From Paramecium tetraurelia (lineage: Eukaryota): a stretch of 64,000 bases of DNA. Positions 5,160 to 16,506 of this stretch are shown here, one piece after another. The notes under the pieces are model-generated. The model was not told the origin of the DNA. It made no database searches and saw only the letters and a program-made list of their open reading frames with translations. The stretch spans positions 764,601 to 828,600 of the forward strand of contig CT868096.1 in NCBI GenBank assembly GCA_000165425.1. The letters are read 5' to 3'. The position numbers were made by a program, and so were the translations under genes. How positions within the stretch are numbered: position 1 is the first letter of the stretch; each line of letters opens with the position of its first letter.

Positions 5160-7382
<2,223 letters not shown>

Positions 7383-9206: not shown

Positions 9207-10223
9207 TATAGATTATTGATATTTTTCTATATATATAATCTTATGTTCTTTCAAAAAGTTACTTGAAATCATAATAGTATGATAAAATCAATTACTTCAA
9301 TAAATTGCGAATTAAAATAAATAATAATTAACATTAAATATATTGATACATTATTTATATTGCACTTAGAATTATTTGAAGCAGTCCAAGCAGTCAGTCA
9401 AAAATAATTAGTTTTAATTTAATTAACTGTATGTTATTCTTAGTGGAGAGTTTTGAAAAAAAATATCAAAATAAGTTAAAATCAGATTTGGGTTATTTTT
9501 ATTGCATATATATACAATATTCTTCCCTTTTTTATTGACGCTTCTATTTATATTCATAATATTCAATTAAGATAATTCTGATGAGTCCAATAATATGGCT
9601 TTTGGAGTTATGTTCTAAATCTTTATTCATCCCCAAAGACAAAAATTTAGAGAATAAATGAGATGATATTACAAACAATAGTTATTCTCACTAGAAAAAT
9701 TAAAAAGTAATTTTTAAATGCAATAATCCTAATAGAATAAACCTCAGATTAGTATGCGTAGCTTCAATTATACCATAAAAGGCATTATTTGATTTTTATC
9801 GGTATGAAGCATTTTAATCTTCGCAAAAAATGCAGTTCTTTCGAAGTTGAAGATGATCTCAATAAATTTACTAAGGGAATTATATAATAAACATACTGTA
9901 TTTATCTGATATGAATCTAAATATATTTTATGATTAGTTAATCAGAGAAAGAAATAAATTAAATTAGTTAAAAATGGTTCTATAATCCAAAATTAACATT
10001 AATATTCCTTTTTCTTTTTAAAAATATCATTTTGAAATCACACTCATATATATTTAAGAAAGAGGATTTTCATGAAGAATTGCAAATGATTTTCTATTAT
10101 ATAAAGTTGTAGATCTAAGAATTTGTTTTATCACATTCTGTCTTTTATTTCATCTTAAGTATTTAATTGATTAGAACCACTTTTTTTTTTTTGTTTCCAA
10201 TATCAGTATAAGTAATCAAGAAA

Positions 10224-10295
10224 GTGCTTGTAGATTAACGGATAGATCATCAGTCTGATAAGCTGAAGGCGAAGGTTCGATCCCTTCCAAGCATA
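10224..10295 (+). tRNA. trnI-GAU: tRNA-Ile with GAU anticodon
   Basis: Complete cloverleaf: acceptor GTGCTTG/CAAGCAT, D stem GATT/GATC with GG in the loop, anticodon stem TCAGT/GCTGA with loop CT-GAT-AA (10257-10259), T stem GAAGG/CCTTC with loop TTCGATC, discriminator A, no encoded CCA. Confidence 0.93.
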
Positions 10296-10302
10296 TTTTT
10301 TT
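10296..10302 (+). terminator. RNA polymerase III oligo-T terminator
   Basis: Run of 7 T immediately after the tRNA discriminator base. Confidence 0.75.
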
Positions 10303-10479
10303 AATTTTATCTAAAACTTATTTAAATAGGTATTTTTAGAATAATAGCATAGTGATATGAAAAATAGCACAAAACAACATTTGGAAATTAGAAGCTAAAA
10401 AAATTCATAGGATATTATCATCAATTTATATTATATCAACCATTTTGGTATTATAAAATAACATTTAATTTCCAAACAT

Positions 10480-11156
10480 TATCATTCATATAATTTTCAG
10501 ATTAATATATGCTAAATTCCTGATATCTTTTCGATCAAAAGAACTTCAATTAATAGAATCAGGAGTGTCTCATCAATAAAAAGAATTATTTAATAGCTCT
10601 TTTCAATTCATTTAAGAGAATTCTCTCAACTCTCTTGATGGAATTCGATCAGAACTATCTCGAATGTCTTTTCTATAATCTTTTGTATCATAAAATAAAT
10701 CTCTTCACCTAATTTTTTATTCCACCCTTACCCAATCTATAAGAGGAATAGCTTATGTTTTTGAATCATGAAAAGCATAAACAAACACTTAGCATAACAA
10801 TCTTATTCTTAATAAATTATATTGCAAAGTAATTTCTCTTATTAATATTGGATTCTAAGTTTTCCTAAAAGTAGCTTCTTTCCTTAGTGCTTATATTTTA
10901 GATTGAATCATATGATTAAAAAGGTATAAGACTCAAATTGTTTACAAAATATTCTTCATTCTTGGCGTTTCAGTTAATTAAGGCTATCATTTATTGAATT
11001 AAATTTTTCTATTTATATACTTCTTAACTTCATATTTATTAATTTATTTTTATTTTCTGAATTTTATAAATCCAACCCACCTTCACCTTATAAACTTTAT
11101 TTTCTTAAGTCTTAATTCTTCTAATAATGTTTGTATTTAATACATTGTTTTTGCAT
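10480..11156 (-). pseudogene. Probable decayed coding remnant
   Basis: Purine-rich, coding-like composition on the minus strand and an intron-like GT..AG segment, but all three frames are interrupted by TGA. Confidence 0.3.
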
Positions 11157-11681
11157 AAATAAAATATATTGTCTGGTGGTTATATTATTATGTAAACAAA
11201 ATAAAAGATATTTAATAAATAGTCCTCAATTTAATAAATTTGTTTAAATCACATATATTTATATATATCTATAAATATATAAACTTCAATAAAATATGTA
11301 TATATTTATATATTTCAGTTGAAGAGATTACAAAATTAGTTATCAATTAACACTTAAATTTTTTCAGTTACACAAATGCAATTAAGAATGATTATTAAAT
11401 ATTTTATATGTTGAGGACATAATTATTGATATTCCAATTAACTTCAATATTGTTTCTTTATAACATACACAGGTCTGAAATCATTGGTTGAAGATTTCAA
11501 TTTCTGACTGTTATCCTGGAATTATGTAACTGTGCTTTTTAATTATTAGATGATGATTCTTAATTAAGGATAGAATTGAGAGATTTAAAGATATAAGTAA
11601 GCAAATATATTAGAGATTCCACAATAGGGAATATATATTAACATGAATTAATGAATCAATATTAAAATTTATATAAATAAC

Positions 11682-12304
11682 ATGGGATGTGTTAATTCTC
11701 GAAGTGTTGAGGTTTATCAAAGGAAATTCAAACTAGTTATTGTAGGGTTGGAAGGAAGTGGTAAAACATCAATATTTGAATACATCAGACAAGGAAAATT
11801 TGTGCAAACAAAACCAACAGTTGGTTAGGATTTATAATTATCAATAGGTGTAAATGTAGATTTTAGCCATCCTGAGTTTATGATTTTTGACGTGGGGGGA
11901 AAAGTACCAAGCTTATGGAGTAACTATTACGAAAACACTGATGGACTAATTTTTATCATAGATTCTTCAAATAAAGAGTAGTTATATTAGGTCAAAGAGC
12001 AATTTGTTAAGTTGAATAAAGATTTAGAATACTTGAATGTATTACTAATTAAGTGAAATAGGTAGTAATTCTCATTATGTTTACAAAACAAGACAAAATA
12101 CATCTTGATAATCAGGTTTTGATCTAAGAATGCGGAGTGTTTGGATATCTAGAATAAGATACTATATTCTAAATGTGCAGCGCTAAAACCGGTGATGGAG
12201 TGTAGGAAGGAATTTAAAAATTAATAAACTTAATCAAAAAACAATAAAAGCCGAACATTCCACTTAACCCAATTAAATAACATTAAAAAAAGATAGCAGT
12301 ATGA
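11682..12304 (+). CDS. ARF-like (Arl) small GTPase, divergent
   Basis: MGC N-terminus, G1 GLEGSGKT, G2 PTVG, G3 DVGGK, G4 TKQD, G5 CSAKTG. Two tiny introns. Confidence 0.9.
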
Positions 12305-12312
12305 TAATTAAT

Positions 12313-15300
12313 TCAAAAATATAAATCTAAATCTATTTTACACAATTTATCATATGGTAAAGATTATATTTACTATAACTGTTATTTCTTTTGCATTATT
12401 TTTTAATTATTGTTCTAGCTACCATTTGAATTCATTTTACTGCTTTTCATTTAGTGTCTCTCGCACATGTAATTACTCAAACTTTCAACATAAGGAGGAT
12501 CAATAGTCCATACTCCACTTTATACCCAATTGGTCGTTAAATTTTTAATAACTTAAAATCCCTTTCCTAAATTGTTATCAAATAATCCACGTAGACAAGC
12601 ATAAGTGCAATATATAATCGAAATATTATTGGAATAAGAACTGAGTACTCTGACAATCTAATACTCCTTTCGATTCAAATAATTGCATTTTTAGATGAAT
12701 GGCTTGAAATGACATTGCATAAGAATAGTGCCATTCGTACCACACCAAAATAATTGTTTATTTAGTACACAAGAACATTTCATGCCAGCCATTACCTAAT
12801 CTCCACTCATTTATGATAACTTAGGTTTGTTGATGTTCTCAAAGTCACCAGTTCCCAATTAGCCATGCTCATTACATCCCCAAATAAATACTTTTTTCAG
12901 AGAACTTAAAGCTATTACATGCTTATATCCACATTCCACCTAAATTATTTTTTCATTAAATGGCAATCTTTCCACTTGTTCTCTAGTTTTGTTATCCCCT
13001 AATCCCAATTGACCTTTCTCATTTTGACCATAACCGTACAACCCTCCATTTTCACTTAAAAGTATTGTAAATGCACTTCCACATGACAATGAGGTGATTT
13101 TCACATTCATTTAAATACATTTTAATTAATCATACACTTTACCTTCTGATATAAACAGGATTCTATTTCTATAAGCCTTGATAAATTCAACATTCTCGTG
13201 TAACAACTTAGGATGCTAAATATATTTATGTTAAAGACAACCCCAAATAAACAACCTATTATCATTTTGTTATAAGAGACAATGATTTTATCCCATTGAC
13301 ATACTTTTCATCTTCCCAGTAAAACTCAATGGGGTTGGATTATGTTTCTCTCCGTCCTATGTGAATCCTAATTAACTCATATCATTTAAGCCCCAACCAT
13401 ATAATTTATTACAACATGCCCCAATTGTTGTATTTTCACCAACTTAAATAAATTATAATGGATTTTCCTTTTCAAAACTTTGGATAAATAAATCCTTGTA
13501 GTTCGATGCAAATGTTCCATTATAACTATCAGAAGTATCTGAGATGATCTCCAAATCTATAATAAAAGCAAACAAATATATTTTAGGCTAAATCAATGAT
13601 TCCATCCCCAAAATCAATGCTGAATCATAATCAGTTTTTTAACCCATTTTTAATCCAAATAGATCACTCTCCTCCTGTAACTTTTGCTGTTGTAATTATT
13701 ATTCTAGTGGTAAAATGTATTGATCATATTATTATTTTAATTCTCTTCTCCTTGGTAATATCATTCTAAATCTCCTCTGAATTATTACAGCAGCTTATCT
13801 CATTCTCTAAAATACACAACTCAAATGTTTCATTCTAAAGAAACCTTGAATTAAATAGGCCGCTTCATGCATTTTGCTTAATCTCACTCTTACAATATAT
13901 CCTCTAGCCCATCTCTAAATAGTTTTTATTCTTTTTTCCATTCTTATTCTTCTTCCTACTTCCTTAATTTATTAGATTTCTTTTTTGTGATGTTTTCTAG
14001 TATAATAACCTCGATAGTATTTTTATATTATTATGGCAGCATTAAATCTTACCTAATCCCAAGATTTATCAATAACAATGTTCAAAATTCTTCTAATATT
14101 TAAATATTACATAATTCTCTTTTAAATTCTGCTAATTCTAAAATTTTTTTGTATTTTCCTTATGCATTCTATTTTTTTTTTAAATTTATTCTGATGTATT
14201 TTACTTAAAATAGCATACTTTAAATATTCAATCTGTTTTTTATATAACTTTTATTTCTTTCTGATTTAGTACATATAATAAAATTTTTGAATGAGAGTAG
14301 CAGCTTTCATTTTTTTTCTAAATTGTATTTTTCTTAATTTTCTTTTAATCTTTTTTGCAACTCTTTTAATCATTGCCATAAACTTTTTGAATTTCTCTCT
14401 CAATTAACCTCTTCGAAAAGCAGATTAAATACATCTAGCCTTATCATTCTTCTCTTTCATCAATAATGTGTAAATCTTATCAATCTAGGTCATTCCTGCT
14501 TCTTATATAAAGATTTATGTATTTCCAAATAAATATAAATCCTTAGGTAATTCACTAAATTATTCCTAGAACATTTTTTAATCCAATGCTTTATAATCTT
14601 TATTTAACGGATCCTAAAACCCACCTTCTTAAATGAATCTATATTTTAGGTAAAACCTCCAAAAGTCTACTCGAATAGGGAATGATTCTTTTCTAACTTT
14701 TAATGAGTCTAAAACACCTAAATATCGAATTTATTTCATGGCATATTTATTATCTAATTTATTTGGAACCAATTCATCATTTGGTTTGATACATCGAATA
14801 AAATGAACTCCACACGATTGTAATTCTGTCATTAAACTTTTCATTTCATTTTTAATCTTAACAACAATTGACTTTGGTTTTGGTTATAATTAGACCATCT
14901 AGCTATTACATTTTGCTTCTAAAAGTAATTATGGAATTTCATCTTGATTTTTTTCAACAAATTCTTAGCAAGTATATTCTACATCTTTAGCAGTATGCTT
15001 TATAGTAAATGTAGGCTTTACAGAACTGGCAAATTTGAGTTCTTTTCTAAAAGATTATAATAATTATTAGTCAGATTAATTTAACCTACATGCTTAATCA
15101 ATAAGATTAAAAAAACAAACAGGAGGTTTATCAAACATATCAATCAATTAAGTGTTGTCTTCAAATTTAATACTATCGACAAATTTTTCTAGACCTTCTC
15201 TTACAAATATTTTTTTCTCTTCTTTGAAAACGTATTCAATATATAATTAATGCAGTCTTTCATTTGAATAATTAATCATCATTTACTCAAATCCATTAAA

Positions 15301-16506
15301 ATTATCGAAAACTTCAAAACCATAGATATCCAATAGACCAATATATGTTGTTTTTTCCTGTTTAGTAATCAAGGTTTCATTAAGCTTCTCTATAATCCAA
15401 TTAAATAATCTTTCATAAATTTCTTTAGCCCAAGAATCCCTTATTCTTATACAATCAAGTAATTTAATAGGTGACATAATCTTTTCTTTTCCATAGATAG
15501 CTTACTTTAAGGTTAATGCCTTAACAATATCGTTGAAATCATAATCTAATAATTAGCAAATTTATTTCAATAGATCCTCGTTTTTTACACTACAAGGATT
15601 GGTGTTACCATAATTGCTATCATCAAATTATAATTCTCCTATCAATAAAACAGAATAAACAACTTAAAATACGGCTTCAGCATCAATATTAACAGTAGTG
15701 AATGCTTAGATCAATTCATCAAAAAATTTCTAACTGAAATAATTATCTGTGCCCAAATAATTAAAATTTTATCTTTAATACTTTGGATTGCCAAATAATA
15801 AATAAAATATGTGAAAATTTCTATCTGATTTGGAATGTGAAACAACTCTACTCTTTTCCAACAGATAATTTACAATGTCTCCTCCAACAATTTATTATTT
15901 TTAATTAACAAAGAGTCTAGTATACTTTCCAAATCTACTGGAATTCTTGTTTCTAATTGTTTTAGCATTACCAAATGCTTCTAAGATTGGATTACACCCC
16001 ATAATCTTATCAGACAATTCACTTTCTTCGGAATTAACACTGGTTAATAGATTAAGACAATATCTTGCATTTTCTGTTTTGCCTGCTCCACTTTCCCCTG
16101 ATATGACGATGGCTTAAGTTTTTTCAGTCAATTTGGTAAAAGCATATGCAGCAATTGCATAGGTGTGAGGTGTAATTGATTTATAGTTATGACGTTTTCT
16201 AATAATATATTCTACATATTCTTATAGATTTGCATCGAGACTCTTAAATGGATTAATAACAATCAGAGTTGGTCCAACATATGTAAATATTTAATCGTTT
16301 TTGTATCTCTCACTTAAGTTATATAAAAGTTATGGATCATTAATTATAGCCAGATTGACCATGTCTGCTTAAACATCCTCACATCTTTCCCACACCTGTC
16401 CATTCAATTTCCGACCATTTTCTTCACTTATATAGTTGTTTCCATCTGCAATTATACCTTTTATAAAATTATCACTCTCTAAAACCCAAACTTTATTACT
16501 AAACAT
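12313..16506 (-). CDS. Myosin heavy chain with multiple IQ motifs and RCC1-repeat tail
   Basis: [16 protein letters not shown]-loop [46 protein letters not shown]. At least 5 IQ-like motifs. RCC1 repeats ([25 protein letters not shown]). 4194 nt with start and end in the same frame, so apparently intronless. Confidence 0.95.

Follow-up and report, generated by a model that had tools for sequence, protein, structure and literature searches.

An intact, apparently single-copy tRNA-Ile(GAU) gene with a bacterial-like acceptor stem in the nuclear genome of Paramecium

The window analyzed in this work (the whole stretch of DNA, 64 kb in length) carries an intact, real and apparently single-copy tRNA-Ile(GAU) gene belonging to the Paramecium nuclear genome. 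This gene, a tRNA-Ile (gat) located at 10224-10295 on the forward strand, is the sole tRNA that ARAGORN detected in the 64-kb window. The Rfam tRNA model, RF00005, is also the single Rfam family matched across the window and aligns over its full length (1-71 of 71) with a score of 66.2 bits (gathering cut-off 29, E 3.5e-12), the cmscan alignment flagging no non-standard pair. This score falls within the range obtained for 42 tRNAs from one bacterial genome (52-76.3 bits). On the minus strand, a match to the Rfam family 'Plastid-ycf2 5UTR RNA' (10226-10294) reached 24.8 bits vs a cut-off of 65.7 and was rejected as the antisense of the tRNA shape. The features of the locus are as follows:

10224-10295, forward strand: tRNA-Ile(GAU) gene, 72 nt, intron-free, CCA not encoded (ARAGORN; Rfam RF00005, 66.2 bits)
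10257-10259, forward strand: anticodon GAT, positions 34-36, flanked by C32, U33, A37 and A38, giving a U36-A37-A38 context (sequence, ARAGORN)
10231-10241, forward strand: A-box-like sequence TAGATTAACGG, positions 8-19, with A11 instead of the usual C11 (sequence)
10274-10284, forward strand: B box GGTTCGATCCC, positions 52-62, matching the GGUUCgAaUCC region of the Rfam consensus (sequence)
10296-10302, forward strand: T7 run right behind the discriminator A73, candidate Pol III terminator (sequence)
10181-10212, forward strand: putative upstream elements, a T12 run (10181-10192) and TATAAG (10207-10212, -17 to -12), in a flank of 22% GC (sequence)

An earlier note on this DNA had described a 72-nt cloverleaf with a GAT anticodon, wobble pairs, A15/C48 and a 4-nt variable loop, and all of these are present according to the sequence, ARAGORN and Rfam. 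The stems have 7, 4, 5 and 5 bp (5′ strands GUGCUUG, GAUU, UCAGU and GAAGG), with a D loop of 8 nt, an anticodon loop of 7 nt and a variable loop of 4 nt in the ARAGORN string. The 21 stem pairs include only Watson-Crick and G:U pairs, the latter being G1:U72, U13:G22 and U31:G39, and the Levitt position A15/C48 is non-canonical. The tRNA also carries A37, A38, A73, C4:G69 and U12:A23. Recognition by isoleucyl-tRNA synthetase (IleRS) is anticodon-based and involves GAU, A37/A38 and the discriminator A73; these isoleucine-accepting features are all present in the sequence, from which charging is predicted. Furthermore, U36-A37-A38 is the usual context for t6A37.

The intact stem pairs (21/21) and an Rfam score in the middle of the range of real tRNAs favor a functional gene. 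So does base composition, the GC content of the tRNA (44.4%) being twice that of its flanks (21.8%), as expected from selective retention or from recent arrival. The same points argue against a non-functional relic, i.e. an unused though still foldable tRNA, transcribed or not, left from an old duplication, from organellar DNA or from a foreign source. We consider such a relic possible, although on the unlikely side, because several other characters count against function. The predicted fold is a cloverleaf but a weak one (-18.1 kcal/mol, z -1.32, 21 of 200 shuffles being as good), three of the pairs are G:U, A15/C48 departs from the canonical pair, and the A11:U24 pair was found in only one of 139 comparison tRNAs. 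The stems are also AT-shifted, 44.4% GC comparing with means of 58-61% in bacterial tRNA sets.

The window is ciliate nuclear DNA, from the Paramecium aurelia complex: its long frames are open only with TAA and TAG read as glutamine (table 6) and its GC content varies from 21 to 35% along the sequence. An uninterrupted ORF of 1,397 aa on the minus strand (12313-16506) encodes a myosin motor fused to RCC1 repeats, and its first 700 residues show 96% and 93% identity to proteins of Paramecium pentaurelia and P. primaurelia, respectively. This myosin-RCC1 family is widespread in ciliates. The recognizable genes nearest to the tRNA are a piece of a class II aminoacyl-tRNA synthetase gene (6123-7040, minus strand) and a gene encoding an Arf-family GTPase (11682-12056, forward strand). 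Between 7697 and 11484, none of the 11 ORFs of at least 83 aa has a Pfam match, and the two ORFs overlapping the tRNA lack Pfam matches above the cut-off. The gene had previously been described as alone in a gene-poor stretch, which agrees with one tRNA per 64 kb and about 4 kb devoid of recognizable genes. Such an isolated single copy also fits a decaying or foreign relic.

Three neighboring regions deserve a mention. The class II synthetase piece (6123-7382, minus strand), located some 3 kb upstream of the tRNA and matching tRNA-synt_2b and the editing domain tRNA_edit, resembles a prolyl-tRNA synthetase by eye; its proximity to a tRNA gene is probably a coincidence. Just downstream of the tRNA, the segment 10507-11017 is covered by contigs of two runs (X17 and X18) guessed to be RNA. 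The ORFs located there have no Pfam match, and the segment may correspond to a transcript missing from the annotation or to a small, rapidly evolving gene. These contigs cover only this segment and short repeats, not the tRNA, and are uninformative on its expression. Finally, 37-41 nt at 11029-11069 are common to several other contigs, with a summed depth raised about four-fold (788 vs 197), and look like a short dispersed repeat.

The A-box-like sequence, the B box and the T7 run directly after the tRNA, all pointed out in the earlier note, were confirmed in the sequence (TAGATTAACGG, GGTTCGATCCC and 10296-10302). Compared with a type 2 Pol III gene, the B box and the T7 run are present and the A box departs at position 11. 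Runs of at least seven T begin at 56 of the 128,000 strand-bases of the window (4.4e-4 per strand-base). Such starts are so rare that a T7 run placed exactly at the end of the tRNA is unlikely to be due to chance and is better taken as a real signal. A scan for bacterial promoters and terminators remained at chance level (7 found vs 6.1 expected). The perfect B box and the T7 run lying exactly at the 3′ end therefore count in favor of function and against a relic.

Copy number was examined by aligning the contigs of two DNA-type runs, carrying two organism labels, to positions 9900-11300 at 80% likeness. The window may itself derive from these runs, which for this reason do not provide an independent confirmation of its sequence. 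In both of them, one contig of 9,228 nt with Paramecium-like flanks spans the tRNA locus with 0 differences, and the depth over 10182-10275 is that of this contig alone (197.4 and 25.3). At a likeness of at least 80%, neither of the two DNA assemblies contains a second contig that aligns to the tRNA. Pieces of 35-41 nt with 5-7 mismatches, originating from elsewhere in the genome, did align to other parts of 9900-11300; it should be emphasized that contigs demonstrate presence better than absence.

These data bear on whether the gene arose recently by mutation of position 34 in the host tRNA-Ile(AAU) or in its elongator tRNA-Met, or whether it results from a sequencing error or from contaminating bacterial DNA; all of this now appears extremely improbable. 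A variant with a single change, at position 34, would have 31-letter words in common with the gene and should therefore have appeared as a contig or have broken the one observed. Since no other contig is found on the tRNA, a recent anticodon mutant or a contaminant is unlikely. A host tRNA nearly identical to this one except at position 34, which the earlier note had listed among the observations that would refute its proposal, was thus looked for in the two DNA assemblies and not seen.

Comparison with eukaryotic tRNAs points in the same direction for both suggested parents. According to PMC9023262, metazoan tRNA-Ile(AAU) has the stem motifs GGGCC.R, GCUC, UGGUG and GCGGG, the Ile-specific pair U30:G40 and G15:C48, Table 1 of this source covering mammals and insects only and not ciliates. 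Measured against these mammal and insect motifs, the tRNA of the window fits none of the four and has G34, G30:C40 and A15/C48. One observation would suit a mutant of tRNA-Met: the 5′ strand of the anticodon stem, UCAGU, fits the UMAGU motif of metazoan elongator tRNA-Met, but the remaining three stems miss the metazoan Met motifs (mammals and insects, PMC9023262, in part). A motif scan of viral contigs yielded 113 loci and 35 tRNA-Ile(AAU) called by ARAGORN (25 distinct), several of them with the UGGUG anticodon stem. The identity of the 25 distinct sequences to the tRNA of the window (mean 33.2/63, maximum 41; 4.8/15 in the acceptor stem) is no better than that of unrelated bacterial tRNAs and argues against a mutant of tRNA-Ile(AAU). 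Taken together, the reading as a point mutant, an error or a contaminant is largely refuted.

The gene had also been described as being of bacterial or organellar type, and this description stands for the acceptor stem. The pairs 3:70 to 7:66 (G-C, C-G, U-A, U-A, G-C) and A73 are those of a widespread bacterial tRNA-Ile(GAU) stem. The two strings reported earlier as shared with bacterial tRNA-Ile, GCTTGTAG and CTGATAAG, do co-occur with the spacing of a tRNA, and they do so in at least 120 species records of prokaryotes belonging to many phyla. For a comparison by arm, tRNAs called by ARAGORN were placed on canonical positions and each arm was scored. Mean identity in the acceptor stem is 10.9/15 with 49 distinct bacterial tRNA-Ile(GAU) compared to 5.3/15 with 30 other tRNAs of one alphaproteobacterial genome; the Ile set was picked by a pattern over positions 3-10 and 32-39, so that the two paired strands of the acceptor stem (5′ and 3′) do not count as independent evidence there. 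GCTTG at positions 3-7 occurs in none of 82 non-Ile tRNAs, and four of its five letters in four of them. This stem favors a descendant of an organellar or bacterial tRNA-Ile(GAU), placed under nuclear Pol III and imported into mitochondria for bacterial-type translation and IleRS, with little or no cytosolic use. The failure to fit any of the metazoan Ile(AAU) motifs, i.e. an unlikeness to the animal cytosolic type, agrees with such an origin, which we nevertheless regard as improbable in view of the rest of the molecule.

Apart from the acceptor stem and anticodon loop, the tRNA is no more similar to Ile than to other isotypes: 8.7 vs 9.1 of 14 for the D arm, 6.3 vs 7.0 of 14 for the anticodon stem-loop without the anticodon, and 10.5 vs 11.1 of 17 for the T arm. 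Among the 31 distinct tRNAs of one alphaproteobacterial genome, the best is Gly(CCC) with 44/63, and Ile(GAU), with 37/63, ranks behind seven others. BLAST searches gave a similar picture. Against 401 alphaproteobacterial genomes, the best E-value is 3.4e-5 and the top 20 places include 10 Lys(UUU), 3 Trp, 2 Arg and 5 non-tRNA sequences but no Ile. E. coli genomes gave nothing at E<=10, and phages gave 13 weak generic tRNA matches (Arg, Met, Gln, Asn), none of them Ile.

The bacterial IleRS identity elements listed in the earlier note are present in the sequence, but each of them is common in the 82 non-Ile tRNAs (C4:G69 in 29, U12:A23 in 42, A73 in 48, A37 in 63 and A38 in 64) and thus says little about an imported bacterial-type tRNA. 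The identity set of E. coli-type tRNA-Ile includes C29:G41. In place of the C29:G41 pair and 5-nt variable loop of the E. coli type, the tRNA described here has A29:U41 and a loop of 4 nt, which also argues against this origin. Since no Ile excess appears in the D arm, the anticodon stem, the T arm or the BLAST results, the Ile-specific bacterial resemblance is, among the sequences compared, reduced to the acceptor stem, and the label of bacterial or organellar type does not extend to the other arms.

Relatives were also searched with a pattern made of the anticodon arm of the window tRNA and a degenerate T loop. This pattern gave no match among 185,579 species records of prokaryotes, nor in viral contigs. 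Descent from an endosymbiont or by horizontal gene transfer, as had been proposed, receives no backing from these searches, neither BLAST nor the arm pattern having found a donor lineage in prokaryotes or viruses. In metagenomes, the pattern retrieved eight loci, each with a tRNA-Ile(GAU) at the match. Three of the eight (L002, L003 and L007) lie on mitochondrial fragments of protists: L003 bears rps11 and YMF19/atp8, L007 bears nad5 and cox2, and L002 resembles L003 through a common ORF of 390 aa. L001, L004, L005 and L006 are dense tRNA arrays. The rps11 ORF of L003 has only two relatives, and the L007 nad5 is closest, among named sequences, to proteins of diatoms and Palpitomonas (about 50% identity).

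The three mitochondrial loci and the fact that the closest single sequence, L002, is one of them (48/63) could be taken in favor of import into mitochondria of an organellar-type tRNA. However, metagenome loci chosen by the pattern have an identical anticodon arm by construction, which accounts for 14 of the identical positions of L002. Over the positions not covered by the pattern, L002 reaches 28/42. Non-Ile tRNAs average 18.2 there, with a maximum of 26, and ordinary bacterial tRNA-Ile, with a mean of 26.5, does about as well as L002.

Other characters of these loci were observed. L001 (1-3520) and L004 (1-4845) include 11 and 23 tRNA genes, respectively, many of them 2-6 nt apart and many with an encoded CCA, and these arrays resemble the tRNA islands of phages or small genomes. 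The ORF common to L002 (56-1228, minus strand) and L003 (1908-3065, forward strand) encodes a conserved basic protein of about 385-390 aa without Pfam match. As called by ARAGORN, the tRNA-Ile of L002 and L003 have mismatches in the acceptor stem, which could reflect tRNA editing or shifted ends.

Overall, the gene is a mosaic without a clear parent among the sequences compared. Its acceptor stem is of the bacterial or organellar Ile type, its anticodon stem fits the metazoan elongator-Met motif, and the remainder is generic.

With regard to a use in organelles, Tetrahymena imports only one of its glutamine tRNAs. All mitochondrial genomes of the P. aurelia complex carry three tRNA loci, in most cases Y, F and W (PMC6505448, in part), and trnF, trnW and trnY form the set common to ciliates (PMC3318907, in part). 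Since the tRNA loci of P. aurelia mtDNA are Y, F and W only, mitochondrial tRNA-Ile must be imported, in line with the previous statement that ciliate mtDNA encodes few tRNAs and that the rest are imported (PMC6505448, in part). This need speaks for import of the tRNA described here, but an imported ordinary tRNA-Ile(IAU) would serve equally well. As regards a recent NUMT (nuclear copy of mtDNA), the flanks of the tRNA, with 21.8% GC, differ from the value of about 40% reported for aurelia mtDNA, from which trnI is absent according to the literature.

A more specific version is that the gene would be a surviving nuclear copy of the ancestral mitochondrial or bacterial trnI(GAU), transcribed by Pol III, imported and dedicated to mitochondria, its acceptor stem being retained because a bacterial-type mitochondrial IleRS still reads the tRNA; we hold this to be doubtful. 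Two weak and non-discriminating hints go with it: the GC content of the tRNA (44.4%) is within the 40-45% of P. aurelia mitochondrial tRNAs (PMC6505448, in part), and the nearest sequence, L002, is a protist mitochondrial tRNA-Ile.

In eukaryotes, the purine that is absent or avoided at position 34 for Ile is G (PMC8007984 and PMC8266599, both in part). Ile(GAT) is predicted in 31.48% of sampled eukaryote genomes vs 97.85% for AAT (PMC9858662, in part), so that the earlier statement that eukaryotic nuclei normally avoid G34 for Ile is borne out as a description of a minority form. In a related oligohymenophorean ciliate, many Ile_AAT (scores up to 84.9) and Ile_TAT are accompanied by one low-scoring Ile_GAT (25.3; PMC10553269, in part). 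The low score of this Ile_GAT amid normal Ile_AAT and Ile_TAT is a further point in favor of a relic. The supplement on Ichthyophthirius gives 'Ile 7' without anticodons. Our literature search found no paper describing a Paramecium nuclear tRNA-Ile(GAU); most subscription journals, GtRNAdb and ParameciumDB were outside its scope, and absence from print is therefore not claimed.

Considering all these elements, the reading that we prefer, with a probability of roughly 0.55, is that the gene would be a functional, Pol III-transcribed, single-copy minor nuclear (macronuclear) tRNA-Ile(GAU) reading AUC and AUU. The absence of a near copy and the precedent of Ile(GAT) genes predicted in other eukaryotes add to the points already mentioned in favor of function. 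The internal A-like and B boxes would recruit Pol III, which would stop at the T7 run right after A73; the ends would then be processed and CCA added. The isoleucyl-tRNA synthetase would charge the tRNA through GAU, A37/A38 and A73. The charged tRNA would read AUC and AUU by G:C and G:U pairing, beside a presumed main tRNA-Ile(IAU) and a tRNA-Ile(UAU), its G34 not being modifiable to inosine. The minor role beside IAU is assumed from other eukaryotes and from the tRNA list of one related ciliate (PMC10553269, in part). More generally, we infer the transcription, charging, decoding role and cell compartment of this tRNA from its sequence only.

AUU and AUC are almost always read by an inosine tRNA in eukaryotes, and well-formed G34 Ile genes are exceptions whose use is mostly obscure. 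The present gene stands out by the lack of a look-alike in its own genome, by its bacterial-type acceptor stem and by a host whose mitochondria must import tRNA-Ile. If it were truly dedicated to the organelle, it would provide a specific and traceable substrate for ciliate tRNA import and a rare case of a transferred tRNA gene turned functional in the nucleus, as well as a mitochondrial counterpart of the plastid cases of Selaginella. If it is a minor cytosolic tRNA or a relic, it amounts to a small annotation note.

Among known systems, bacterial and organellar tRNA-Ile(GAU) share with the Paramecium gene the GAU anticodon, the CUGAUAA loop, A73 and the acceptor pairs 3:70 to 7:66. However, they usually have 74-77 nt and a variable loop of 5 nt (compared to 72 nt and 4 nt), and they have G:C pairs where the Paramecium gene has G1:U72 and U2:A71. 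Furthermore, the Paramecium gene, unlike them, is nuclear and is followed by a T run of the Pol III type. In the eukaryotic cytosol, tRNA-Ile(AAU), which ADAT2/ADAT3 convert to IAU by deamination, serves the same amino acid box and is encoded by a Pol III gene with internal boxes; the G34 of the Paramecium gene is not deaminable, unlike the A34 of this tRNA. The human tRNA-Ile-GAT genes are close variants of the Ile(AAU) body, whereas the Paramecium gene resembles nothing else in its genome at 80% or more and carries a bacterial Ile-type acceptor stem. The human nuclear tRNA-Ile-GAT is likewise a G34 Ile tRNA gene with a well-formed cloverleaf, and it has an oddity at C54/A58 (PMC9023262).

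For the mechanism proposed in the case of import, Selaginella provides one documented analogue, which concerns plastids (PMC11573648, in part). In Selaginella kraussiana, a nuclear plastid-like tRNA-Pro and a bacterial-like tRNA-Arg(UCU) are expressed and present in plastids (PMC11573648, in part), a precedent that speaks for import of the Paramecium tRNA. The proposed mechanism is the same, i.e. a tRNA gene of organellar or bacterial descent that is expressed in the nucleus and whose product serves an organelle that no longer has such a gene, but the organelle is a plastid in Selaginella and would be the ciliate mitochondrion in Paramecium. The origin of the Selaginella tRNAs was established by trees and their expression and localization by tRNA-seq of purified plastids, whereas the Paramecium gene is known from sequence alone. 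Overall, this gene joins a known kind of eukaryotic G34 Ile exception, to which the human tRNA-Ile-GAT also belongs, and is not a new kind of system.
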